In this document: positions 1,156 to 51,443 of the stretch, piece by piece | Position numbering within the stretch: the first letter of the stretch is position 1 | Layout: the number at the start of each line of letters is the position of its first letter | Source of the DNA: Escherichia coli | Lineage (GTDB): Bacteria > Pseudomonadota > Gammaproteobacteria > Enterobacterales > Enterobacteriaceae | Assembly (NCBI RefSeq): GCF_003334335.1 | Contig: NZ_QOWQ01000025.1 | Direction: 5' to 3' (one strand) | Length of the DNA: 64,000 bases | Program-made: the position numbers and the translations under genes | The notes under the pieces: generated by a model | Told to the model about the DNA's origin: nothing | The model's database searches: none | What the model saw: only the letters and a program-made list of their open reading frames with translations

Positions 1156-1239
1156 TTAATTTCGATTATTTTTCCCGGATGGAAAATTCTTAGAAACCGA
1201 TCACATACAGCTGCATTTATTAAGGTTATCATCCGTTTC

Positions 1240-1326
1240 GCTGAAAAACATAACCCATAAAATGCTAGCTGTACCAGGAACCACCTCCTTAGCCTGTGTA
1301 ATCTCCCTTACACGGGCTTATTTTTT
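1240..1326 (+). ncRNA. cyaR: CyaR (RyeE) small RNA; its 3' end coincides with the prophage att core
   Basis: Sequence GCTGAAAAACATAACCCATAAAATGCTAGC...CACCTCCTTAGCC...CCCTTACACGGGCTTATTTTTT recognised as CyaR with terminal hairpin and U-run; located between yegQ and ogr. Confidence 0.8.
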
Positions 1327-2891: not shown

Positions 2892-3370
2892 TATCCCGCC
2901 CCCATCATACCTGTGAATCTGGTCGCCAGACTGCCGGCCTTACCGATGAGCGATTCCGCCTGTTTACCAATATCGCCATAAAGCGCGGCCAGTGATTCAT
3001 CAACGCGGGTGAGCGACAGCGTAAAATCAATTTTCCGGGGTGTGCCGTCTGCAAAGAAAATACTCCCTGTTTCACTCACCCTGCTGATGACATACATACC
3101 GTAAATCATGCCGGTGCCATCCAGCAACGGCCACGCCCGGCCTTCCTCTGCCATCAGCCTGAGCGTGGTCATCGTCAGCTTCCCGCCGGTCAGTTCGGGA
3201 TAAAGCACACCGGCAAGCGTGATGTTTTCCTCGCCCACACCGAGAAACTGAAGGGCATCCCGTTTACCGATACGGGAATTTGACGGCCAGCGATAATCTG
3301 ATTCACGCTGCATGGTCTGGTGTGGCAGCGTCTGGCGCATAAAAACAAACATACCTAACGCGAGCATCAT
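2891..3370 (-). CDS. U: Tail protein U
   Basis: 159-aa ORF between T and D, as in P2. Confidence 0.8.
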   Translation of the reverse strand: MMLALGMFVFMRQTLPHQTMQRESDYRWPSNSRIGKRDALQFLGVGEENITLAGVLYPELTGGKLTMTTLRLMAEEGRAWPLLDGTGMIYGMYVISRVSETGSIFFADGTPRKIDFTLSLTRVDESLAALYGDIGKQAESLIGKAGSLATRFTGMMGAG

Positions 3371-3384
3371 TTTTCGTCACCTCC

Positions 3385-5832
3385 TTAACCGTCATGCATC
3401 ATGCTGGCACGGGCGCGCGCACGTTTATCCCGCTCGTATTTTTCGAGCGCATCCTGTAACTGGCGGTCGAGCTGAGTCCCCGGCGCAGTACCGCCCGTCA
3501 GACTGATGTGATATTCGTTTTTACTCTGGTCCACATAAGAGCGGCCAGCCGGTGCCGTAACCGGCTGATAAGCCTGATAACCTGCATAAGAGCTGGTCGC
3601 CGGAATATAACCACCGGTGCCATACGTGGCGGCATGAGTTCTGGCGGCGGTCTGGTCAAGTGTGTCTGACTCTTTGTTGATAACACCGAGTTTTTCCAGT
3701 ACCCAGTCAATACCGCTGCGCAGTTTGTTGAACGCATTAAGCGGCAGCATCAGCGCGTCAGCCAGTGCCTGCCCGAACATGACGCCCGTGTCACGGCAAC
3801 GGTTCAGGGTGTCCCGGGTGGCTTTGACCGGGGCAATCAGGTTTTTAAACCACTGCCACGCGGCCTGTAACTTTTCACCCAGCCAGTTAAACAGCGGCTT
3901 AAGTGGCGTGAACAGTTCCCCCACCGGCGCAAATGCCGCTTTCAGCCCTTCAACCACACCGCCAAAGAATGCGCTGACAGGCTCCCAGTATTTACGGATA
4001 AGCAACGCCCCGGCGACAATGGCAGCCACCACGGCCACAACCGGCCAGCTAATCGCACTGATGGCCGTCATAACGGCACTACCAACCGTCGTGAAGATTG
4101 CCCCCATTGCGCCTGCTGCCGCGATAATGGCATTGATGCCGGTGATAACCGGCCAGGCTACGAGGCCAATGGCACCGATGACACCAATCAGCGCCAGTGC
4201 ACCACCGACAATGATGCCGATGGTTGACGCCAGTGATTTGTTTTTCTGTATCCAGCCGTCGAGTTTTAACACATACTTTGTGGCCGTCTGCGTGAGCTTA
4301 CGCAGTGCGCCTTCCTGCTGGTCAAACAGGTCAGTCCCCACCGCCTCATAAGCGGACTGAAACTCCTTAAAGTCACCGCCGAGGTTGTCCTGCATGATAT
4401 TTACCAGCTCAGCGGTCTTCCCGTCTGAGGCTTTAAACGCAGCGGTCAGTTTGTCCAGCTTTCCAGTTGAGGCGGCAGTCATCAGCACGGCGGCGGCTGA
4501 GCTGGCCTCCTCCCCGAAAATAGTTTTCATGTATTCAGCCTGCTGGGCAGTACCGAGCCGGTTTTTCTCAAAACTGGCCTGCATTTCTTTCAGAATGGTA
4601 AATACTGGTCGGGTGTTTCCCTTGCTGTCTGAGGTTTTCACACCAAGCTCTTTGAGTGCATCCCATGCTTTTCCCGTCGGTGCCTGCAGGCGGCTTAACA
4701 CGGCACGGCTTCCCGTCCCCGCCATTGAACCAGTAATTTTTGCGTCATGCAGCGCCCCGACCATTGCGGCGGTTTCTTCAATGCTGACACCGGCATTTTT
4801 TGCCACTGGTGCGGCATAGGTCAGCGCATCGCTCATACCGTCAAAATCGGCGGCGGTTTTGTTCATCGTCATGGAGAGAACATCCCCGATATGAGCGACC
4901 TTATCGTTTGAAAGCTGAAAGGCGGATTTCATCCCCATCAGCAGGGCGGCGTTTTCTTCCATCGTGCGACGGTTCGCCAGCGCCATATTCAGCGTGACCG
5001 GCGTTGCCGCCTGAATGGCATCAACATCCCCACCGGCTTTCGCAATAATAATCTGCGCACCGGCTGCATCATCTGCCGAGGCTGCGGTATTGTCGCCGAG
5101 CTGGCGCGCCTGCTTGCGTAGTGCAGCCATTTCGGCGGAGTCTTTTGCCACACCGAGCACGGCCTGCAATTCTGAGTTTTTCTGCGCAAACTCATAACCG
5201 GGCATCAGCAACTTAACTCCGGCCATCGTTCCCGCAGCAGCAATCCCCACACCGGCAGCGCCCACTGAGGCCATATTTCCGGCCAGTTCCTTTCCGGCCT
5301 GATAACGCTGTTTGACTGCGTTAAGTTTTGCCTGTTGTGCGCTGACACGCGCCAGTGCATCGCGCTGACGGTTAAGTTGTGCGGTGGTTTCACTGATACG
5401 GTTTTTCAGCCCCTGCTCATCATGTGCAAGATTGCGGGTATTAATTCCCACAGCGGCCAGTTCCCGCTGCTGGCGTTTAACAGAATCCGTCAGGCGGTTA
5501 TATTTCGCCTGTAAGTCCTCCGCCGCACGCTTTGCGGATTCCAGCACTTTCGCCTGAGCACGGGTTGGACGTTCGGTGTTTTTAAACTGTGTGGCAAGGG
5601 CTTCGGCCTCCTGCCGTGCCTTTTCAAGTGCATGACCAGTCACGGCGAGCTGTGCACTGGTCTTGCGGAATCCCTCAATACGGGATGCGTGACCGTTCAG
5701 CTCGCGCAGTGATTTTTGTGTTTCCCGGATATCCCCCGACAGCGACCTGCTCGCTGTACGGATGGATTTAAACGGGCGGGATGCCTGGTCAACAGCCCTG
5801 AGCAATACCTGTAATTTTACATTGTTACTCAT
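3385..5832 (-). CDS. T: Tail tape measure protein T
   Basis: 815-aa ORF with coiled-coil N-terminus, Ala/Gly-rich hydrophobic central region; P2 gpT length and position. Confidence 0.9.
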   Translation of the reverse strand: MSNNVKLQVLLRAVDQASRPFKSIRTASRSLSGDIRETQKSLRELNGHASRIEGFRKTSAQLAVTGHALEKARQEAEALATQFKNTERPTRAQAKVLESAKRAAEDLQAKYNRLTDSVKRQQRELAAVGINTRNLAHDEQGLKNRISETTAQLNRQRDALARVSAQQAKLNAVKQRYQAGKELAGNMASVGAAGVGIAAAGTMAGVKLLMPGYEFAQKNSELQAVLGVAKDSAEMAALRKQARQLGDNTAASADDAAGAQIIIAKAGGDVDAIQAATPVTLNMALANRRTMEENAALLMGMKSAFQLSNDKVAHIGDVLSMTMNKTAADFDGMSDALTYAAPVAKNAGVSIEETAAMVGALHDAKITGSMAGTGSRAVLSRLQAPTGKAWDALKELGVKTSDSKGNTRPVFTILKEMQASFEKNRLGTAQQAEYMKTIFGEEASSAAAVLMTAASTGKLDKLTAAFKASDGKTAELVNIMQDNLGGDFKEFQSAYEAVGTDLFDQQEGALRKLTQTATKYVLKLDGWIQKNKSLASTIGIIVGGALALIGVIGAIGLVAWPVITGINAIIAAAGAMGAIFTTVGSAVMTAISAISWPVVAVVAAIVAGALLIRKYWEPVSAFFGGVVEGLKAAFAPVGELFTPLKPLFNWLGEKLQAAWQWFKNLIAPVKATRDTLNRCRDTGVMFGQALADALMLPLNAFNKLRSGIDWVLEKLGVINKESDTLDQTAARTHAATYGTGGYIPATSSYAGYQAYQPVTAPAGRSYVDQSKNEYHISLTGGTAPGTQLDRQLQDALEKYERDKRARARASMMHDG

Positions 5833-6839: not shown

Positions 6840-8030
6840 TTAATTGCTGTTAACCGAAGTGACCAGATTTGCCAGGTATTTATCGGTAATACGCTGGCGC
6901 AGGGTCAGGTTTTCAAGAGGAGGCACCGGGGTATAGTCGTAGTCGATATACAGTTTTCCGGCCTTGAGGGTTTCCGCATCGTTGGATTCTTCGCTGAACC
7001 AGCAGGTCGCATCCACGATATAGCCGTTTGTTTTCAGCTCACGGAATTTGGCATTGATGCCGTCAACGATGTCGCGAATCAGCGTTGCGGTGATGGGCTT
7101 GTCCACCGCCCACATGTGCGCCTCAGCCATCGTGTCGGCCAGCACCTGCGCGGTGCGGGTGTAGTTTTCAAAGAGGAACAGCGGGTCATCCGAGCAGGTA
7201 CGGTTACCCCAGAAGCGGAAACCGTCACGGCGAATCAGCGTTGTGACACCTGACTCATTAAGCAGGTCAGCATCGGTGCCGGACTCCTGCAAATCCCAGA
7301 ATACAGAGGCACTGATGCCGGTAACACCGTTTACCCCGACATTGGACAGCGTTTTATGCCATCCCTGCTCCTGGTCGATTCTGGCACGCAACCCCAGCGC
7401 ACGGGCGGTGGCATACGCGGTGGCGGTGGTACTGGTGACCGTATCCCATGCGAGGAAATCCGGCCAGATGACCATCAGCTCACGCTGGCTGAAATTCTGG
7501 CGGTAGGCTTTCACCTCGGAAATGGTCTTACAGCCCCATGCGCTGATATATCCGAAAGCACGCAGCTTCTGACAGACGGATGCCAGTGCAACAGCCACCT
7601 CTTTGGTATCCAGTCCCGGCACACCGAGAATACGCGGTTTAACACCGGTTACCGACTCCGCCGCCAGCAGGGCTTTCAGTCCGGTGTACTGACCGTTTTC
7701 GTCGGTGGTGCCGATGATATTGGAAACGGTCTGCGCGAGTTTCGTTTCCTCGTCGTCGCCGGTGCCGTCTTCCACACGCACGACAACGGTGACCGGTTTT
7801 GACTGGTCGGCGATGGCCTGCAACGATGCCGCCAGCGTGCCTTTTTTACCGGCCTTTGCAATTGCGCTCTGTACATTGGTTATCAGCACCGGTTTATTGA
7901 GGGGGAAGGTTTCCGCATCCGCATCGCTGGCCGTGCAGACCATGCCGACAATGGCCGTGGATACGGTGGAAATGACGCGGGTGCCGTCGTTAATCTCCAG
8001 CACCTGCACGCCGTGATGATAGTCACTCAT
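6840..8030 (-). CDS. FI: Contractile tail sheath protein FI
   Basis: 396-aa ORF, P2 gpFI length and position. Confidence 0.9.
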   Translation of the reverse strand: MSDYHHGVQVLEINDGTRVISTVSTAIVGMVCTASDADAETFPLNKPVLITNVQSAIAKAGKKGTLAASLQAIADQSKPVTVVVRVEDGTGDDEETKLAQTVSNIIGTTDENGQYTGLKALLAAESVTGVKPRILGVPGLDTKEVAVALASVCQKLRAFGYISAWGCKTISEVKAYRQNFSQRELMVIWPDFLAWDTVTSTTATAYATARALGLRARIDQEQGWHKTLSNVGVNGVTGISASVFWDLQESGTDADLLNESGVTTLIRRDGFRFWGNRTCSDDPLFLFENYTRTAQVLADTMAEAHMWAVDKPITATLIRDIVDGINAKFRELKTNGYIVDATCWFSEESNDAETLKAGKLYIDYDYTPVPPLENLTLRQRITDKYLANLVTSVNSN

Positions 8031-8430: not shown

Positions 8431-9210
8431 ATGAGTAATGAAACACAATCATTCCTTAGTCAATTGCTAATATCCATAATCTCTATATCTTTAGGGTCAT
8501 TTCTTTTTGCTGGAATCCTAGAGAGCTACAAAAAAGACCAAGATCTTCAGGAGGAGTTTATAAAGGATTACTTTAGGCCAATGATGAAATTACAAAGTTC
8601 TTGTTCATCTTCACATAATGAACTATTTCTAAAGTATGGAGAGTTATCTGCTTCTTATCAGCTCATGTATAATGAAATAGTACATATGGCAATGAGCCCT
8701 GATTCAGAATTAGGACAACATTATGAAGTTCTCCCGATATCTCTTATTAAAACAAATGAAGAGTTAAAAAAAAGAGTTGAAGATCTTGAAATGACGGTAA
8801 AAAAATGCAATGTCGATTTATTCCTTAAGTACGAAGAGCTTGCATTAGTTACTGGTTCATATCCAGAGTTTAAGAGGCTGGCGAAAAAACACACTGACAC
8901 AATTAACTCCATCTATTCAGAAAGACAAAAAAAAGCAAAGGGAAATGCAAAAAATATAGACCCTGATCAACTAATTCCATTGATGCGGAAATATATTGCC
9001 ATGGATCCACACACCAATGTAAACAAATCCATGCTTGCCAGTGAAATTGATAACATATCTAAACTAACAACACAGCATAATTTGATAATGGCAGAATATG
9101 AGGAGTTAATTTTCAAAGAAGATAATGATTTATTTATAACTCTTCATGATCTTTATGCAATCAAAATTAGTGAAAAGTATTCAGGTGGATTTATCAGTTG
9201 GATATTTTAA
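8431..9210 (+). CDS. Cargo protein at the Z/fun position: N-terminal TM anchor plus coiled-coil domain, function unknown
   Basis: 259-aa ORF, SD AAGGA 7 nt upstream of ATG, about 33% GC versus about 55% in flanking tail genes, opposite strand to flanking phage genes; hydrophobic segment LLISIISISLGSFLFAGIL. Confidence 0.7.
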   Translation: MSNETQSFLSQLLISIISISLGSFLFAGILESYKKDQDLQEEFIKDYFRPMMKLQSSCSSSHNELFLKYGELSASYQLMYNEIVHMAMSPDSELGQHYEVLPISLIKTNEELKKRVEDLEMTVKKCNVDLFLKYEELALVTGSYPEFKRLAKKHTDTINSIYSERQKKAKGNAKNIDPDQLIPLMRKYIAMDPHTNVNKSMLASEIDNISKLTTQHNLIMAEYEELIFKEDNDLFITLHDLYAIKISEKYSGGFISWIF

Positions 9211-9361: not shown

Positions 9362-9889
9362 TTATTGCGGCATTTCCGGCCATTCAGGATTTGCAGGATC
9401 CACACGGCTGACCAGAACACTGTAGCGTTCCCATGCTTCCAGTCGGCTACGCTCCTCATCTGTTGCCATGTTCAGCCTGACAGCGCGCTCCAGTGGCTGA
9501 ATAACGCTTTCCGCTTCGGAAAGTAACGCGGCCTTTTGTGATTCTGCCTGTTGTTGCTGTTCGTCTGCCGTATAAATCCGCTTAATCACGGCACCATCCT
9601 TAAACATCCATTTACCTGAGTCATCAGCACGTCGGTTGGCGGTAATATCAGGAACCTCGACAACGTTAAAACCTTCAGGGTTAAGCGTTGAAGCATCTCT
9701 GGTGATGCCGACAATTATATTATTCTCGTCGTAAACAATCTTTATCGTGTCTTCCTGAAAATTACTTACTTCCTCATACCAGTTTTTTCCCTCTTCGGAC
9801 CATAACCAGATAACATCAAAATTTTTTGTCAGTTGATATTGGGCAACAGTTTTTGGATTACCCGCAGTAATATTTTTTAAATGCTGCAT
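9362..9889 (-). CDS. G: Tail fiber assembly protein G
   Basis: 175-aa ORF directly downstream of tail fiber H. Confidence 0.8.
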
Positions 9890-23011: not shown

Positions 23012-24784
23012 ATGACCATCACCACAGACACCACTCTTTTACACGACCCGCGTCGTCAGGCGGCGCTGCTGTACTGGCAGGGGTTTTCCGTGCCGCAGAT
23101 TGCCGCCATGTTGCAGATGAAACGCCCGACGGTGCAGAGCTGGAAACAGCGCGACGGCTGGGACAGCGTTGCCCCCATCAGCCGTGTCGAAATGAGTCTG
23201 GAAGCGCGACTGACCCAGCTCATCATCAAACCGCAGAAAACCGGCGGTGACTTCAAGGAAATTGACCTGCTGGGACGCCAGATTGAACGACTGGCGCGGG
23301 TCAACCGCTACAGTCAGACCGGCAACGAGGCAGACCTTAATCCGAACGTCGCTAACCGCAACAAAGGCGGGCGTCGCAAACCGAAAAAGAATTTTTTCAG
23401 TGACGAAGCCATCGAAAAGCTGGAGCAGATTTTCTTTGAGCAGTCTTTCGACTATCAGTTGCACTGGTATCGCGCCGGGCTTGAGCACCGCATCCGCGAT
23501 ATCCTGAAATCCCGCCAGATTGGCGCAACGTTTTATTTTTCCCGCGAGGCGCTGCTGCGCGCCCTGAAAACCGGCCATAACCAGATTTTTCTGTCGGCCA
23601 GTAAAACGCAGGCGTATGTGTTCCGCGAATACATCATCGCCTTTGCCCGTCTGGTTGACGTTGACCTGACCGGTGACCCGATTGTCCTGGGCAATAACGG
23701 CGCAAAACTAATTTTTCTCGGCACCAACTCCAACACCGCACAGAGCCATAACGGCGACCTGTACGTCGACGAGATTTTCTGGATCCCGAATTTTCAGGTA
23801 CTGCGTAAGGTGGCATCAGGTATGGCCTCACAGAGTCACCTGCGTTCGACCTATTTCTCCACCCCGTCCACGCTGGCGCACGACGCCTACCCGTTCTGGT
23901 CAGGTGAACTGTTCAACCGGGGACGCGCCAGCGCCGCCGAACGCGTGGAAATCGACGTCAGTCATAACGCCCTTGCCGGTGGGCTTCTCTGTGCGGACGG
24001 CCAGTGGCGGCAGATTGTCACCATTGAGGACGCCCTGAAAGGTGGCTGCACGCTGTTCGACATTGAGCAGCTCAAACGTGAAAACAGCGCCGACGATTTT
24101 AAAAACCTGTTCATGTGTGAATTTGTTGACGACAAGGCGTCGGTGTTCCCGTTCGAGGAGCTGCAACGCTGCATGGTCGACACGCTGGAAGAATGGGAAG
24201 ACTATGCGCCGTTTGCCGCGAATCCGTTCGGCTCCCGCCCGGTATGGATTGGTTACGACCCGTCACACCGTGGCGACAGCGCCGGATGCGTGGTACTGGC
24301 ACCGCCGGTGGTGGCCGGTGGCAAATTCAGAATACTTGAGCGCCACCAGTGGAAAGGCATGGACTTTGCCACCCAGGCGGAATCCATCCGCAAACTCACC
24401 GAAAAATACAACGTCGAATACATCGGTATTGATGCCACCGGCCTTGGTGTCGGCGTGTTCCAGCTCGTGCGCTCGTTCTATCCCGCCGCGCGCGACATCC
24501 GCTACACGCCGGAAATGAAAACCGCAATGGTGCTCAAGGCAAAAGACGTCATCCGCCGTGGCTGTCTGGAATATGACGTCAGCGCCACCGACATCACCAG
24601 CTCGTTTATGGCTATCCGCAAGACCATGACCAGCAGCGGACGCAGTGCCACCTATGAGGCCAGCCGCAGCGAGGAAGCCAGCCACGCCGACCTCGCCTGG
24701 GCGACCATGCACGCCCTGTTAAATGAGCCACTCACCGCCGGTATCAGCACCCCGCTGACATCCACCATTCTGGAGTTTTACTGA
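23012..24784 (+). CDS. P: Terminase large (ATPase) subunit P
   Basis: Start at MTITTDTT with SD GAGGT; 590 aa as in P2 gpP; divergent from O. Confidence 0.9.
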   Translation: MTITTDTTLLHDPRRQAALLYWQGFSVPQIAAMLQMKRPTVQSWKQRDGWDSVAPISRVEMSLEARLTQLIIKPQKTGGDFKEIDLLGRQIERLARVNRYSQTGNEADLNPNVANRNKGGRRKPKKNFFSDEAIEKLEQIFFEQSFDYQLHWYRAGLEHRIRDILKSRQIGATFYFSREALLRALKTGHNQIFLSASKTQAYVFREYIIAFARLVDVDLTGDPIVLGNNGAKLIFLGTNSNTAQSHNGDLYVDEIFWIPNFQVLRKVASGMASQSHLRSTYFSTPSTLAHDAYPFWSGELFNRGRASAAERVEIDVSHNALAGGLLCADGQWRQIVTIEDALKGGCTLFDIEQLKRENSADDFKNLFMCEFVDDKASVFPFEELQRCMVDTLEEWEDYAPFAANPFGSRPVWIGYDPSHRGDSAGCVVLAPPVVAGGKFRILERHQWKGMDFATQAESIRKLTEKYNVEYIGIDATGLGVGVFQLVRSFYPAARDIRYTPEMKTAMVLKAKDVIRRGCLEYDVSATDITSSFMAIRKTMTSSGRSATYEASRSEEASHADLAWATMHALLNEPLTAGISTPLTSTILEFY

Positions 24785-25818
24785 TGAGCAAGAAAAAAGG
24801 GAAAACACCGCAACCTGCGGCAAAAACAATCACCGCCAGCGCCCCGAAAATGGAGGCATTCACCTTTGGTGAGCCGGTGCCGGTACTCGACCGCCGTGAC
24901 ATTCTGGATTATGTCGAGTGCATCAGTAACGGCAGATGGTATGAGCCGCCGGTCAGCTTTACCGGTCTGGCAAAAAGCCTGCGTGCTGCCGTGCATCACA
25001 GTTCACCGATTTACGTCAAACGTAATATTCTGGCTTCAACGTTTATCCCGCACCCGTGGCTGTCCCAGCAGGATTTCAGCCGCTTTGTGCTGGATTTTCT
25101 GGTGTTCGGTAATGCGTTTCTGGAAAAGCGTTACAGCACCACCGGTAAGGTCATCAGACTGGAAACCTCACCAGCAAAATATACCCGTCGTGGCGTGGAA
25201 GAGGATGTTTACTGGTGGGTGCCGTCCTTCAACGAGCCGACAGCCTTCGCGCCCGGCTCCGTGTTTCACCTGCTGGAGCCGGATATTAATCAGGAGCTGT
25301 ACGGCCTGCCGGAATATCTCAGCGCCCTTAACTCTGCCTGGCTGAATGAGTCGGCCACGCTGTTCCGCCGCAAGTATTACGAAAATGGCGCACATGCCGG
25401 ATACATCATGTACGTCACCGATGCCGTGCAGGATCGCAACGATATCGAAATGCTTCGCGAAAACATGGTCAAGTCGAAAGGCCGCAACAACTTTAAAAAC
25501 CTGTTTCTCTATGCCCCACAGGGGAAAGCCGACGGCATTAAAATTATCCCCCTCAGTGAAGTGGCGACGAAGGACGATTTTTTTAATATCAAAAAAGCCA
25601 GCGCCGCTGACCTGCTGGACGCGCACCGCATCCCCTTTCAGTTGATGGGTGGCAAGCCGGAGAACGTCGGGTCGCTGGGTGATATTGAGAAAGTGGCAAA
25701 GGTCTTTGTCCGCAATGAGCTTATCCCGTTACAGGACAGGATCCGCGAGATAAACGGCTGGCTCGGTCAGGAGGTCATCCGCTTTAAAAACTACTCACTG
25801 GACACTGACAACGACTGA
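24784..25818 (+). CDS. Q: Portal protein Q
   Basis: 344-aa ORF overlapping the end of P, P2 gpQ length. Confidence 0.9.
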   Translation: MSKKKGKTPQPAAKTITASAPKMEAFTFGEPVPVLDRRDILDYVECISNGRWYEPPVSFTGLAKSLRAAVHHSSPIYVKRNILASTFIPHPWLSQQDFSRFVLDFLVFGNAFLEKRYSTTGKVIRLETSPAKYTRRGVEEDVYWWVPSFNEPTAFAPGSVFHLLEPDINQELYGLPEYLSALNSAWLNESATLFRRKYYENGAHAGYIMYVTDAVQDRNDIEMLRENMVKSKGRNNFKNLFLYAPQGKADGIKIIPLSEVATKDDFFNIKKASAADLLDAHRIPFQLMGGKPENVGSLGDIEKVAKVFVRNELIPLQDRIREINGWLGQEVIRFKNYSLDTDND

Positions 25819-25985: not shown

Positions 25986-26004
25986 GTGCTTTCCCCGCCT
26001 CGCC
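25986..26004. other. cos site (19-nt cohesive end, reverse complement of GGCGAGGCGGGGAAAGCAC)
   Basis: Exact 19-mer GTGCTTTCCCCGCCTCGCC, which I recognise as the P2 cos sequence, between Q and the cargo island. Confidence 0.8.
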
Positions 26005-26141
26005 CGCCCGCTTCATGGGTCGGTTTTAATGCAGTTGCATAAACATAGTACAAGCGCGCCAGTCAAGCCTAGCGCACATACATAGAGAACGTATTTAAAC
26101 ATGCAAAATGATGCACCCTATAGGTGCATTCATATTAAACA

Positions 26142-27143
26142 TCACCGAGCCATCTTGACTGCATAATGAACACAAAAATAATGTTCTCCCGCATATCTAA
26201 AATGATGTTCAATTTTTCTCAAACCTATATATGGAGTCTCCACTTCTTTAATCCCAACTATCTCATGAGATTCTACACCAATATCTACCGGAGTAATCTC
26301 TTTTAGATAATCAATGTATCTCTCACACCAAGCATCAAATTTTGCACCAGTATAATAAGCAATTAAAAACAAGCGTTTAACATTAATAGGATTATAGTTA
26401 CCAATTAGCTTTGAATAATGCTTTAATATGTTAGCTTGATCTAGAGATTTTAAAATCAATGCTTCTATTATAGCAAATAGATTTCCTTTATCTTCAATAA
26501 CAAGATCTAATTCACCCGCACTTTTACCAGATTGAGACTCTCCCTCTCTAGTTTGATCTTTTACCTCATAATTCTTAGCTAATAACATATCCCGTATAAA
26601 ATCATTAAAATCATCTTCACCATATCCTTTAGCAGAGCGACGCCCCAATCTTTGAAGCACCCAAGATAAATCACTATCAAACTTTATAAAATTCAAAGGA
26701 CGCTGCACTCGACCATCCTTTGATATTAAGCTTATACTATTAAGATTTAACAAATTAATCCTTTGCCTGATTAATTCATCAATATATCCAGAGTAACTAT
26801 TATTATCTAACACTACGATATGCTTATCAAAAGTAGTGGCTGCATTAGCAACTGCACAAACAACTATATCCTTAATATCCTCAGAACTATTCGGCACTGG
26901 TGTACGCAATATCTTGCCTGAAGGAGCTTTAGATAACTCAGACTCCCACTTCTTAAAAAACAAAAAAGAATCCTTGTTGTTTCCGCAAGACTTTAAATAA
27001 CCTAAGCGAATTTTTCCATCAGCATCAAGAATCAACTCATTTTCACCATTAACAATGGTTTCAATAAAAAAACCGCTAAAAACTTTAACATCAGAAATAT
27101 TAGCAGCAACAAATTCAGGACACAAACAAACAGCACAAAGCAT
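26142..27143 (-). CDS. Unknown-function partner protein of the ATPase (candidate defence effector)
   Basis: 333-aa ORF, start 1 nt after the ATPase stop, AT-rich; no motif I can assign with confidence. Confidence 0.6.
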   Translation of the reverse strand: MLCAVCLCPEFVAANISDVKVFSGFFIETIVNGENELILDADGKIRLGYLKSCGNNKDSFLFFKKWESELSKAPSGKILRTPVPNSSEDIKDIVVCAVANAATTFDKHIVVLDNNSYSGYIDELIRQRINLLNLNSISLISKDGRVQRPLNFIKFDSDLSWVLQRLGRRSAKGYGEDDFNDFIRDMLLAKNYEVKDQTREGESQSGKSAGELDLVIEDKGNLFAIIEALILKSLDQANILKHYSKLIGNYNPINVKRLFLIAYYTGAKFDAWCERYIDYLKEITPVDIGVESHEIVGIKEVETPYIGLRKIEHHFRYAGEHYFCVHYAVKMAR

Positions 27144-27144
27144 A

Positions 27145-28812
27145 TCAATGAACTCCCTTTGAGTTCATTATTTTTTGTATTTTTAATTCCTGTATTCTAA
27201 TTGTATCCTGAATCTCAACATCCATAAACTCATTTGGCCATGTGATATCTCCATCAGAATTCACAGCCACTCTATTTAGTAAGGTTGATGTTCCCTCTTC
27301 ATCTCGCTCAAGATGATAGATTGCCACATGGTCCTCAGTAAGTTCGCTTGATTCATCAACAATTCTTAATCTAATCCGTCTAACTAATGCATCACTATGT
27401 GTTTCAATAATAAAAATTTTCTTTTCTTGCATAGATATTTTAATTAATGCGTCAGTTAACCATGCCTGCATTTTAGGATGCAAATGTATTTCTGGTTGTT
27501 CTATTATTGTAATCGAGCCCTTTGGTGACAAATAAGCTTGAACCAAGACAGGCAACACTTGTGATATTCCAAACCCTACATCTGTCAATTCTAAATTAAC
27601 AGCATCTTGGTTTATAACTATCTTATGAATTATGTCATTAACTCTAACTATATCAACCGCTAAGTTAAATTCAGCGAGAAGAAGGTTTATGTTTTCTGTT
27701 ATTTTTGTATTTTTCTTCAGAATCTCCGCCAACTCAGAGCCATCAGCAGAATTTAACTGAGCATGATTGACTGTTTTATCTAATAAATAATAACGCTGAG
27801 GAAATGCCCTCAACGGGCTGACATGATTAACATTTTCGCCATCAAACATTTTTGAAAGCATTAATACTCCCAGAGAAACAACATGTGACAAAAAGTTAAC
27901 AACAGGGTTGTAGGAATTTCCAAAAAAAACATAAAAACCACGTCCTTCATTGACAGGGAATAGCCCCAAAGAATAAGGATTCATGATTTCTAAGATATCA
28001 GACTTACATCCTCTAAATACTTCTTGAGGGATAACATCCGACAATACAACGACATTATTCTTTTTGGGTAACAGTTCAACTATTCTTTCATCATTCTTAT
28101 TTAGAAGAACAAATCTCGAAACCTTTACCACACCTTTATTTTTATCATATCTGAAGTCATAACTTATTTTAGATGCAGACAATTTATTTCCTGAAATAGA
28201 AACAACTTTAGTTAGGCAATCTTTGATTCTCTTCAATGGGCATTCATATATAAATCTGCGTAAGTTTTCTGAGGTCGCCCGGCTAAACATAATATTATTA
28301 CCAGCATCTCTAAAAAGCATAATCAACTGGCACAATTTATCAGCAATAATATTTAATTTAGCCTCCTCAAACTCATCAAAATTAACAATAGCATTCAAAG
28401 ATTCATTTATCAAATTATTGGCCTTCGCGACCAACTCATCATTATTTTTTACTGTCTGTATAGTGAATCGCATAATCATAGCAAATGATTCTAAAGTTTC
28501 TCTTCTCAGAGTATCAATGCCATTTTTAACTACACTATTATCAGAAAAATCAAAGCTAAAGTTAAGTGTTTTGGAGTCATCTTTATTTTTTATAATATTT
28601 AATGCTTCCCCCATTCCCACTTTAGGTCCATTCAGCCGTAGAGCAGAGTCAGACAATGACATTGAATCAACTGTCTGAGAAAACATCAACAAAGAGTTAA
28701 TTAGTGCACTTTTTCCACAACTATTTGCACCTAACAATATTGTCAATGGCTTTAAATCTAACTTAAAGCTTTCGTATGCTTTATAATTTTGTCCTGTAAA
28801 AGTTCTCAGCAT
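27145..28812 (-). CDS. ABC-type (AAA_21/AAA_15-like) ATPase, candidate defence-system ATPase
   Basis: Walker A GANSCGKS, Walker B with HP motif ITIIEQPEIHLHP, H-loop IIETHS; 555 aa; AT-rich. Confidence 0.75.
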   Translation of the reverse strand: MLRTFTGQNYKAYESFKLDLKPLTILLGANSCGKSALINSLLMFSQTVDSMSLSDSALRLNGPKVGMGEALNIIKNKDDSKTLNFSFDFSDNSVVKNGIDTLRRETLESFAMIMRFTIQTVKNNDELVAKANNLINESLNAIVNFDEFEEAKLNIIADKLCQLIMLFRDAGNNIMFSRATSENLRRFIYECPLKRIKDCLTKVVSISGNKLSASKISYDFRYDKNKGVVKVSRFVLLNKNDERIVELLPKKNNVVVLSDVIPQEVFRGCKSDILEIMNPYSLGLFPVNEGRGFYVFFGNSYNPVVNFLSHVVSLGVLMLSKMFDGENVNHVSPLRAFPQRYYLLDKTVNHAQLNSADGSELAEILKKNTKITENINLLLAEFNLAVDIVRVNDIIHKIVINQDAVNLELTDVGFGISQVLPVLVQAYLSPKGSITIIEQPEIHLHPKMQAWLTDALIKISMQEKKIFIIETHSDALVRRIRLRIVDESSELTEDHVAIYHLERDEEGTSTLLNRVAVNSDGDITWPNEFMDVEIQDTIRIQELKIQKIMNSKGVH

Positions 28813-51221: not shown

Positions 51222-51345
51222 AGTTTGCTCCTGCCATAACGTGAAGAAGCAATGACCTGGTGGTCCGTGACTTCCCTACGCTGGCATTATCCAGATCAGG
51301 TGATACGGGTATTTCTCAGCCTTCACGCAGAAGGGCACCCCGAGT
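51222..51345 (-). promoter_or_regulatory. TPP (thi-box) riboswitch in the thiMD leader
   Basis: Minus-strand GGCTGAGAAATACCCGTATCACCTGATCTGGATAATGCCAGCGTAGGGAA recognised as the thiM thi-box. Confidence 0.85.
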
Positions 51346-51443
51346 CGTTTGGTTGCGATGATAAATCGCAGAGGAGGATGGTAATGTCCAGCGCACGCGT
51401 TGTAAACGAGGAAAAACGGCAGTTTTACAATCGCGTTAATAAA

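Follow-up and report, generated by a model that had tools for sequence, protein, structure and literature searches.

The described defence systems closest to the locus analyzed here are Menshen and HEC-03 (Hma-embedded candidate 3). In Menshen, the ATPase NsnB has an EN Walker B motif without the catalytic Glu, an Arg in place of the Q-loop Gln, a GxG rather than an SGG signature, and a short helical DUF3696-type tail, and 15 families have been reported for the C-terminal part of NsnC: nine of the BECR fold, DUF4276, RloB, PB-PLD1 (PLD), DUF4160, PB-UF1 (UF1), and a DUF2103-like family. HEC-03 consists of an ABC ATPase and a VapC-like PIN protein; it is validated, both of its genes are required, and it is toxic on induction.

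The region of P2 phages between cos and gene A is an experimentally established defence hotspot (Rousset et al.). Location in this hotspot is by itself no proof of defence, since five of the eight additional candidates cloned from it were inactive against the phage panel used (Rousset et al.). The cassette that we describe is listed in Table S5 of Rousset 2022 as "AAA_15/AAA_21 + hypothetical" and was not among the systems cloned and tested there, while a 2026 preprint on P2/P4 tested P4 loci only. A literature search by P2-EC5, ORF555, WP_024249462/3, CAJ43152, and AM157364 returned no paper discussing these genes.

We analyzed a stretch of 64,000 nucleotides of an Escherichia coli contig (NZ_QOWQ01000025.1, assembly GCF_003334335.1), hereafter the window. 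Between cos and the replication gene A it contains two ORFs only, in the same orientation, of 555 and 333 codons and 1 nt apart (Table 1). An earlier note, made from the letters of the window, had described two AT-rich genes on the minus strand at this place, the second starting 1 nt after the stop of the first, and we found that the ORFs, their coordinates and the dip in GC content are all as claimed: GC is 31–35% over positions 26000–29000 against 52–60% in the flanks, and 33% for the cassette itself. The 19-nt cos sequence of the window reads as P2 cos, GGCGAGGCGGGGAAAGCAC, in reverse complement, and the mapping of Q, cos and A around the cassette places the pair at the old/tin position of P2, as had been suggested. 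Alignment to other P2-like phages and to E. coli prophages is confined to positions 26000–26063 and 29061–29097 of the window, and the cassette is identical to the GenBank entry AM157364, "P2-EC5 ORF555/ORF333".

Table 1. Features of the Q-A hotspot and of the two genes that it carries, with positions in the window.
Feature	Coordinates	Strand	Basis or remark
Portal gene Q	24784-25818	+	
P2 cos, 19-nt cohesive-end sequence	25986-26004		GTGCTTTCCCCGCCTCGCC, read directly in the window; marks the left side of the hotspot
Low-GC variable cassette (cargo) in the Q-A (old/tin) hotspot	~26064-29060		Borders by alignment to other P2-like phages
Terminator-like hairpin	26111-26129	-	ATGCACCTATAGGGTGCAT then CATTTTGCAT; 13 nt past the ORF333 stop; consensus scan only
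ORF333, candidate effector, 333 aa	26142-27143	-	AlphaFold model, pLDDT 86.5
ORF333 residues 150-333, PD-(D/E)xK (restriction-endonuclease fold) nuclease domain	26145-26696	-	
ORF333 residues 1-140, PIN-like domain	26724-27143	-	Probably catalytically inactive; proposed docking domain for the ATPase
ORF555, OLD-clan ABC ATPase, 555 aa	27145-28812	-	PADLOC, Pfam, Foldseek
C-terminal tail helix (DUF3696-like), ORF555 residues 534-555	27148-27213	-	Model helix 534-551
Walker B ITIIEQPE, ORF555 residues 434-441	27490-27513	-	Translation; Gln439 at the catalytic-Glu position
Hypervariable helical and beta insert, ORF555 residues 91-326 (~230 residues)	27835-28542	-	Candidate sensor surface
Walker A GANSCGKS, ORF555 residues 28-35	28708-28731	-	Translation
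Upstream non-coding region with AAGGAG ribosome-binding site	28813-29051	-	Read from sequence
Replication gene A	29052-31364	-	

That the partner might serve a conserved P2 function in replication or packaging is ruled out by the absence of the cassette from most P2-like phages, in which the flanks alone align; the cassette is moreover low in GC and present outside P2 phages too. Other P2 hotspots carry it in either orientation, which argues for autonomous transcription. A promoter of its own is presumed to lie in the non-coding region upstream of ORF555, where a consensus scan returned no promoter-like site on the minus strand.

Homologues of the two proteins form more than 120 clusters for ORF555 (38–94% identity) and 53 for ORF333, nearly all of the latter being of about 333 aa, and these are therefore real genes rather than chance ORFs. 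The motifs reported earlier for the ATPase (Walker A, a Walker B of the AAA_21/AAA_15 type and an H-loop) translate exactly, and profile searches agree: Pfam matches AAA_15/AAA_21 in separate N- and C-terminal parts of ORF555, and the best of its 93 PADLOC matches is NsnB (2.3e-51), followed by HEC-03B (model PDLC04148, 5.2e-43; a partial match with its best stretch at residues 396–543) and PDC-M55A (4.7e-41). The AriA models match well below NsnB (3.3e-28 and 2.8e-16, with best stretches over residues 362–477 only), and weaker matches are seen to GajA (~1e-10), PtuA (4e-10) and AbiLi (1e-9). In structure, the best Foldseek matches are GajA (top), the retron Eco8 effector and PtuA, and the fold is closest to those of GajA, PtuA and OLD.

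Among 27 homologues, G28, N30, S31, G33, K34 and S35 of Walker A, E438 and Q439 of Walker B, R335, the G413-F-G415 signature and H472 are all invariant. Q439 aligns with the second Glu of the IIEEPE motif in Thermus OLD (6p74), and this replacement of the catalytic Glu suggests a switch that works by binding ATP and hydrolyses it slowly or not at all. The H-loop reads FIIETHS, with H472 as its His, and leaves 83 residues to the C-terminus (about 80 had been estimated), modelled as three strands and a helix; there is thus no room for a fused TOPRIM domain. Two further parts of the protein are of note. The first is a large insert (predicted helices at 93–211 and strands at 215–257) with a mean pairwise identity of 0.18–0.28, against 0.60–0.79 for the ATPase core. 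The second is the tail helix: DUF3696 (PF12476) is matched in four of the 27 family members at E<=1e-3 and in 12 of the 27 at E<=0.1, it lies below the Pfam threshold in ORF555 itself, and the PADLOC NsnB profile aligns to ORF555 through position 338 of its 345.

The second gene does encode a separate partner of 333 aa, and the architecture of an ATPase plus an effector is supported, since the partner carries a nuclease domain of the PD-(D/E)xK class, one of those named for checking in the earlier note. That note could place it neither with DUF4435/TOPRIM nor with HNH; we also found no DUF4435/TOPRIM, HNH or helicase domain by Pfam, PADLOC and fold search, and can add that the protein consists of two domains, PIN-like and nuclease. 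Other searches with ORF333 returned little: no Pfam family even at E<=10, purC matches at chance level only in NCBIfam and PHROGs, nothing in the PDB with the family profile, no match to the PADLOC models of NsnC and of the HEC-03 partner even at E<=0.1, and a weak CARF_PDDEXK (E 0.0076) as sole PADLOC match. Pfam searches with both proteins gave no methyltransferase and no DNA-recognition domain.

The C-terminal domain has the alpha-beta-beta-beta-alpha-beta core fold in the predicted model and by fold search, and is conserved at E176, D196-Q197, D213, E227, H242, K245 and Y250; in 144 distant relatives, the E, D, D, E, H, K and Y residues are 98–100% conserved. D213 and E227 are 99–100% conserved, and two positions further on from E227 the canonical Lys is replaced by L, M or F. 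An invariant Lys (K245) is present with H242 on the next helix; it could substitute for the missing Lys of (D/E)xK, and the predicted nuclease activity depends on this. In the PIN-like domain, two of the four canonical acidic positions are not acidic (Cys/Ser at the end of beta-1, and none conserved after beta-3); the domain retains an invariant D40, a well-conserved D113/N114 and an A101-x-T103 motif. Among the best matches to the PIN fold are PIN-like domains without catalytic activity, e.g. those of Chp1 and SMG5. Alignment and predicted secondary structure point to a domain that is probably catalytically inactive. Among the top 150 hits of a profile search over 1.84 billion representatives, there were no relatives of the PIN-like domain joined to other effectors, and the N-terminal half alone was matched by fragments only.

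The nuclease domain, with the signature E...DQ...D...E-A-L...H-x-x-K...Y, is widespread (1108 representative proteins), and no Pfam family covers it in 22 diverse carriers. It is also present at the C-terminus of a Lamassu LmuA subtype, of Roc-COR LRR GTPases and of a NACHT protein, and as a stand-alone gene inside a type I R-M operon. In the LmuA subtype (PADLOC model PDLC03853), the C-terminal 160 residues are homologous to the nuclease domain of ORF333 (profile E ~1e-24), with E, N, D-Q, S, G, D, E, H, K and Y in common, and this LmuA sits in a complete LmuC-LmuB-LmuA operon (LmuC 1e-66, LmuB 4e-146).

Pairing of the two genes is strict. All 15 viral-contig loci of IMG/VR with the partner have the ATPase immediately upstream, the same pairing is seen in six further genomic contexts, and the identities of ORF555 and ORF333 fall in step (94/89, 77/73, 48/43 and 45/35%). 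The junction is a 1-nt gap here and an 8-nt overlap elsewhere, and in Enterobacter an intact partner gene adjoins an ATPase gene truncated by an IS. The cassette is rare in E. coli (six of 5426 complete genomes), and a second type, 48%/43% identical, is present in five more. No NsnA gene was found in about 25 loci examined, no PF03235 gene in five Pfam-labelled contexts, and the QRxxxW...DGxQR signature is absent from six-frame translations of 27 loci and of the window.

We consider it probable that the cassette is a two-gene anti-phage cargo of a P2-like prophage, made of an NsnB/HEC-03-type ATPase and a PIN-like/PD-(D/E)xK effector. Most likely it is a defence system of the Menshen/HEC-03 kind but sensor-less, its nuclease being gated by the ATPase. 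We infer defence activity, and the complex, trigger, substrate and outcome proposed for it follow by analogy from an AlphaFold 3 model of NsnB4-NsnC2 and from the solved PARIS and Septu complexes. ORF555 would oligomerise through its ATP-binding heads, and its C-terminal tail helices, in pairs, would grip ORF333 by the PIN-like domain so that the nuclease stays silent. Because there is no NsnA sensor, we propose that the hypervariable insert of ORF555 may recognise a phage product, upon which the nucleotide state of the ATPase would change, and the nuclease of ORF333 would be released or activated to cut DNA, stopping infection probably at the cost of the cell.

A different outcome would follow if the pair worked as a restriction system in the manner of McrBC, the NTPase loading or translocating on DNA and the PD-(D/E)xK domain cutting invading (e.g. 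modified or unusual) DNA, so that the host survives. This is unlikely: neither protein has a detected methyltransferase or DNA-recognition domain, the related HEC-03 is toxic when induced, and effector proteins of the NACHT, Roc-COR and Lamassu kinds, which are generally thought to act by cell suicide or growth arrest, carry this nuclease domain at their C-termini.

The roles of the two domains of ORF333 could also be reversed, the PIN-like domain being the true effector, an RNase as proposed for HEC-03, and the PD-(D/E)xK-like domain a nucleic-acid sensor or inactive. The residues retained in the PIN-like domain (D40, D113/N114 and A101-x-T103), the lack of the canonical Lys in the nuclease domain, and the pairing of a related ATPase with a VapC-like PIN protein in HEC-03, where both genes are required, all speak for this reading. 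We nevertheless regard it as quite improbable, given two non-acidic positions of four in the PIN site and fold matches that include the non-catalytic Chp1 and SMG5, whereas the C-terminal core is the best-conserved part of ORF333 (0.63 versus 0.41) and its nuclease residues are near-invariant among the 144 relatives, as expected for a working active site.

Pfam names AAA_21 a "putative AbiEii toxin, type IV TA system", and the tight coupling of the two genes, be it by 1 nt or by overlap, would also suit a toxin-antitoxin or addiction module that stabilises the prophage, with ORF333 as toxin and ORF555 as ATP-dependent antitoxin; alternatively, the pair might exclude P4 satellites or sibling P2 phages, as systems of the P2 hotspot can target related P2 phages. 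Both variants together seem very unlikely to us. The PARIS and HEC-03 pairs need both genes for defence, and deletion of either PARIS gene is non-toxic; in addition, the intact partner beside a truncated ATPase in Enterobacter is hard to fit with an unneutralised toxin, although that partner may be silent.

Finally, that the pair simply belongs to PARIS, Septu, Gabija/OLD or AbiL is highly improbable and indeed already refuted by the fold of the partner: the likeness to PARIS, Septu or AbiL drawn in the earlier note stands for the shared OLD-ABC clan, with the AriA, GajA, PtuA and AbiLi matches and the structural similarity to GajA and PtuA given above, but those matches are partial and far weaker than those to NsnB and HEC-03, Menshen NsnB/NsnC and HEC-03 being the closest systems, the partner has no DUF4435/TOPRIM, HNH or helicase, and the ATPase no fused TOPRIM.

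How, then, does our preferred reading, an NsnB/HEC-03-type ATPase gating a PIN-docked nuclease, compare with known systems? In PARIS, too, a separate nuclease is held by an ABC ATPase of the OLD clan, and the system occurs in cos-proximal hotspots of P2/P4, but AriB is a DUF4435/TOPRIM protein that cuts tRNA, whereas ORF333 is PIN-like plus PD-(D/E)xK, and AriA is the weaker match to ORF555 (3.3e-28, compared with NsnB). P2 Old shares both the hotspot and the ATPase clan, and GajA of Gabija the clan and the top structural match; in both of these, however, ATPase and nuclease form one protein, with a C-terminal TOPRIM domain as the nuclease, whereas ORF333 is separate and of another fold. In Septu and the retron-associated PtuA/PtuB, an ABC ATPase dimer of PtuA, similar in fold to ORF555, clamps one nuclease protomer, but PtuB is an HNH nuclease and sequence similarity between the ATPases is low (4e-10). 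The likeness to Lamassu concerns the effector domain only, through the C-terminus of the LmuA subtype: its controller is the SMC-type LmuB/LmuC instead of an OLD-ABC ATPase, LmuA lacks the PIN-like domain, and no LmuB or LmuC gene is present in the cassette of the window.

HEC-03 is closer: it too has two genes, for an ABC ATPase related to ORF555 (5.2e-43) and for a partner with a PIN fold. However, its partner has been described as a PIN protein resembling ribonucleases of the VapC family; ORF333 does not match the model of that partner, and has a degenerate PIN site and an additional nuclease domain.

The nearest relative of ORF555 is NsnB of Menshen, with which it compares in its EQ Walker B, R335 in place of the Q-loop Gln, GxG signature and DUF3696-like tail helix, and ORF333 follows the plan of NsnC, an N-terminal PIN-like domain without the full acidic tetrad and then a C-terminal nuclease. 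The cassette departs from Menshen in the absence of an NsnA gene (ParB-DUF262 plus ParBDB) upstream of ORF555, in the length of ORF555 (555 residues against the 345 positions of the NsnB model, the excess being the hypervariable insert), and in the PD-(D/E)xK domain of ORF333, which is outside the 15 families reported for NsnC; the link between ORF333 and NsnC is one of fold and architecture, with no sequence match to the NsnC models.

The cassette would fill in one of many "AAA_15/AAA_21 + hypothetical" entries in the catalogue of the P2 hotspot, and would represent a compact natural version (2.7 kb, two proteins, in E. coli) of the logic of an ATPase with a PIN-docked effector. Being compact and free of a third component, it offers a convenient means of studying phage sensing and effector release by NsnB-type ATPases, and defining the Pfam-less nuclease domain would improve the annotation of many "hypothetical" immune proteins. 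A bolder proposal, which we hold plausible but tentative, is that the cassette represents a distinct, unnamed family derived from Menshen, which lost NsnA, moved sensing to the ATPase insert, and was armed with a Pfam-less PD-(D/E)xK "warhead" that is interchangeable on LmuA, Roc-COR and NACHT proteins. If so, it would provide a minimal two-protein model for the gating of PIN-docked effectors by NsnB-type ATPases, and would link Menshen, HEC-03 and Lamassu through shared parts.

The two minus-strand genes that the earlier note had placed between cos and gene A are indeed present, separated by a single nucleotide, and they are AT-rich as it had claimed, with 31-35% GC in the cassette vs 52-60% in both flanks. 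The alignment to other P2-like genomes stops at window position 26063 and resumes from 29061; because these genomes align only outside those limits, the swapped-in cassette can be delimited to ~26064-29060. An inverted repeat of 9-10 bp (AATGAACTCCCTTTGAGTTCATT; window 27146-27170, both strands), known from the terminator scan only, spans the junction between the ORF555 stop and the ORF333 start, and could have an effect on translational coupling or mRNA processing.

Position of the ORF555/ORF333 cassette and of neighbouring P2 features in the window
Feature	Coordinates	Strand
Portal gene Q	end at 25818	
P2 cos sequence	25986-26004	
ORF333	26142-27143	minus
ORF555	27145-28812	minus
Replication gene A	29052-31364	

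ORF555 is an ABC-type ATPase, as had been read from its motifs: GANSCGKS (28708-28731) and ITIIEQPE (27490-27513) are exact translations, and its Pfam matches, AAA_15 and AAA_21, fall in two parts, one N-terminal (6-146) and one C-terminal (359-477). The best of 93 PADLOC matches is to NsnB, the ATPase of Menshen (2.3e-51), followed by HEC-03B (5.2e-43), PDC-M55A (4.7e-41) and AriA (3.3e-28), while the GajA, PtuA and AbiLi models all score near 1e-10, an order in which the previously proposed likeness to PARIS, Septu or AbiL-type systems recedes behind NsnB. The absence of a fused TOPRIM domain is upheld, as the H-loop histidine is residue 472 and the 83 residues left are too few. In an alignment of 27 homologues (38-77% identity), G28, N30, S31, G33, K34 and S35 of the Walker A are invariant, together with R335, G413-F-G415, E438-Q439 and H472. 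In Thermus OLD, the residue aligned with Q439 is the second Glu of IIEEPE; ORF555 therefore lacks the usual catalytic base and may be a switch that binds ATP and hydrolyses it slowly. The AlphaFold model (pLDDT 83, pTM 0.83; final helix 534-551) has GajA, the retron Eco8 OLD effector, PtuA and Thermus OLD as Foldseek neighbours. PF12476 (DUF3696) was not detected in ORF555 itself, but was found in 4 of its 27 relatives at E<=1e-3 and in 12 of them at E<=0.1. ORF555 has 555 residues vs 345 positions in the NsnB model, and the surplus corresponds to an insert (91-326) with a mean pairwise identity of 0.18-0.28, as compared to 0.60-0.79 in the ATPase core.

Concerning ORF333, for which the earlier note had proposed a PADLOC search, no Pfam match was obtained, even at E<=10, and the sole PADLOC match is weak (CARF_PDDEXK, E 0.0076, residues 174-250). 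NCBIfam and PHROG returned nothing meaningful. The protein has 53 homologue clusters in Enterobacterales and Pseudomonas, nearly all of ~333 aa, and its structure model (input of 37 sequences, pLDDT 86.5) has two domains, PIN-like (residues 1-140) and PD-(D/E)xK nuclease (150-333).

The nuclease domain is widely distributed as an immune module. When 1.84 billion representative proteins were searched with a profile, 1108 matched at E<=1e-3; among the matches listed, only a few dozen are full-length relatives, and the remainder contain the C-terminal domain only (profile positions ~130-331), which in most cases forms the C-terminal end of a protein of 200 to 1700 residues. Across 144 domain carriers, E176, D196, Q197, S203, G210, D213, E227, H242, K245 and Y250 are 98-100% conserved, and position E227+2 is L, M or F, not Lys. 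Carriers include 560-residue proteins matching PADLOC LmuA (1e-30 to 1e-43), one of which lies in a complete Lamassu operon (LmuC 1.1e-66, LmuB 3.7e-146), Roc-COR GTPases with leucine-rich repeats, and a NACHT protein resembling antiphage EruA. Stand-alone versions occur in two defence-type settings: flanked by hsdS and hsdR in a type I R-M operon (context of protein P0199, GCA_016648615.1), with DUF3644 and RelB/YafQ genes alongside, and next to a 1271-aa nSTAND3 protein (locus L016). AFDB relatives are mostly uncharacterised, some being named "restriction endonuclease" or Mrr-type restriction endonuclease. Such a pattern of carriers is as expected for an effector domain of immune systems. 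None of 22 diverse carriers has a Pfam family matching over the domain, and a common nuclease domain without a Pfam entry is brought to light.

ORF555 and ORF333 are one unit. In IMG/VR, all 15 viral contigs with the partner have a same-strand ORF555 homologue ending just upstream; 10 of these 15 loci lie between P2-type Q and A genes, and both orientations occur. We also found the pair in Pseudomonas fluorescens, on an island that has integrase, AlpA and DUF927 genes, at a second Pseudomonas locus, in Serratia near an Ogr/Delta gene, in a second E. coli P2 hotspot type, and in Enterobacter, where an IS element has truncated the ATPase. Relative to the window pair, the identities of both proteins drop in parallel (94/89, 77/73, 48/43, 48/41 and 45/35%). 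No ParB-DUF262 (NsnA) gene is present in any Pfam-labelled context of the pair, nor is the QRxxxW...DGxQR signature in any six-frame translation of the loci.

The surroundings of the pair vary. On the P. fluorescens island, which may combine several defence systems on a satellite-like element, the gene immediately upstream of the pair encodes a 1229-aa YobI-ATPase (L003, 1910-5599). At the Pseudomonas locus L013, a three-gene cluster (3006-4894) coding for a 322-aa unknown protein, a DUF4325 protein and a 187-aa PIN protein is located ~1.1 kb upstream, with an HTH gene (1837-2088) intervening, and may be another toxin or defence module. Some copies have neighbourhoods disrupted by IS elements. 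In Enterobacter (L005-L007), an InsA fragment of IS1 type adjoins ATPase genes reduced to 371-410 aa, the partner gene being intact, and in E. coli 7CC (L002, 7198-8360) the ATPase is separated from a truncated gene A by an IS3 element.

In GenBank, AM157364 ("Bacteriophage P2-EC5 proviral ORF555 and ORF333", E. coli ECOR5) matches the cassette DNA at 99.8% identity and has both proteins annotated as hypothetical; in RefSeq, ORF555 is an "AAA family ATPase" (WP_024249463) and ORF333 a "hypothetical protein" (WP_024249462). Exactly this pair appears as "AAA_15/AAA_21 + hypothetical" among P2 hotspot loci (Rousset et al., 2022, Table S5). Its accessions are absent from the table of tested systems in that study, in which three of eight additional P2 candidates were active, and a full-text literature search on gene names and accessions found no paper treating ORF555/ORF333. 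The pair is already catalogued, yet unnamed, and does not overturn expectations for the P2 hotspot. Few genomes carry the cassette: of 5426 complete E. coli genomes, six contain it, with DNA identities of ~99.8% (four genomes) or 88.7% (two), and five others have a second type whose proteins are 48%/43% identical. The partner is encoded in 1 of 50,697 deposited phage records, the P2-EC5 fragment only.

The same prophage carries among its tail genes a second low-GC island (36% GC; window 14711-16613, minus strand), which encodes a complete Pycsar system with a 462-aa PycC cyclase (PADLOC 1.3e-128) overlapped by a 179-aa PycTM membrane effector (9e-28). A 259-aa orphan ORF (8431-9210, plus strand) in a 37% GC island has no PADLOC match; by position, the flanking ORFs of 396 aa (6840-8030) and 175 aa (9362-9889) look like putative tail sheath FI and tail-fibre assembly gene G, and the orphan would be at the putative P2 Z/fun variable locus. 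The window also includes a CyaR sRNA (Rfam, 100.7 bits; 1238-1323, plus strand) upstream of the prophage genes examined and a TPP riboswitch (51256-51352, minus strand) in the chromosomal flank, and has no tRNA genes.

The Menshen analysis described in NsnB a Walker B with EN for DE, an Arg in place of the Q motif and GxG for SGG, the same departures as in ORF555, as well as a C-terminal DUF3696 helix. NsnC consists of an inactive PIN domain, then a nuclease, and in AlphaFold 3 models NsnB is predicted to form a tetramer that grips the PIN-like domain of NsnC with its paired tails, in parallel with PtuA clamping PtuB and AriA holding AriB. The anatomy of our pair matches these two downstream components, NsnB and NsnC, and also HEC-03, an experimentally validated ABC ATPase plus PIN protein of which both genes are needed and whose induction is toxic. 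Domain identities, conserved residues, linkage of the two genes and genomic location are established by the data; for the complex, trigger, substrate and outcome, the matches to Menshen and HEC-03 lead us to infer a gating scheme in which ORF555 would keep ORF333 inactive via a contact between its tail and the PIN-like domain; a phage product would be sensed by the hypervariable insert of ORF555, a role given to it because the NsnA sensor is absent; and a change in nucleotide state would free or activate the ORF333 nuclease.

Membership in Menshen itself is ruled out by the absence of NsnA and by a PD-(D/E)xK effector outside the 15 described NsnC C-terminal families, and membership in HEC-03 by an unmatched partner model and the extra nuclease domain. 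PARIS, Septu, Gabija/OLD and Lamassu were each rejected. The general class, in which an OLD-ABC ATPase is paired with an HNH, restriction-endonuclease-fold or PIN nuclease, is known from earlier computational work. The pair is a minimal E. coli model in which to study NsnB-type gating.
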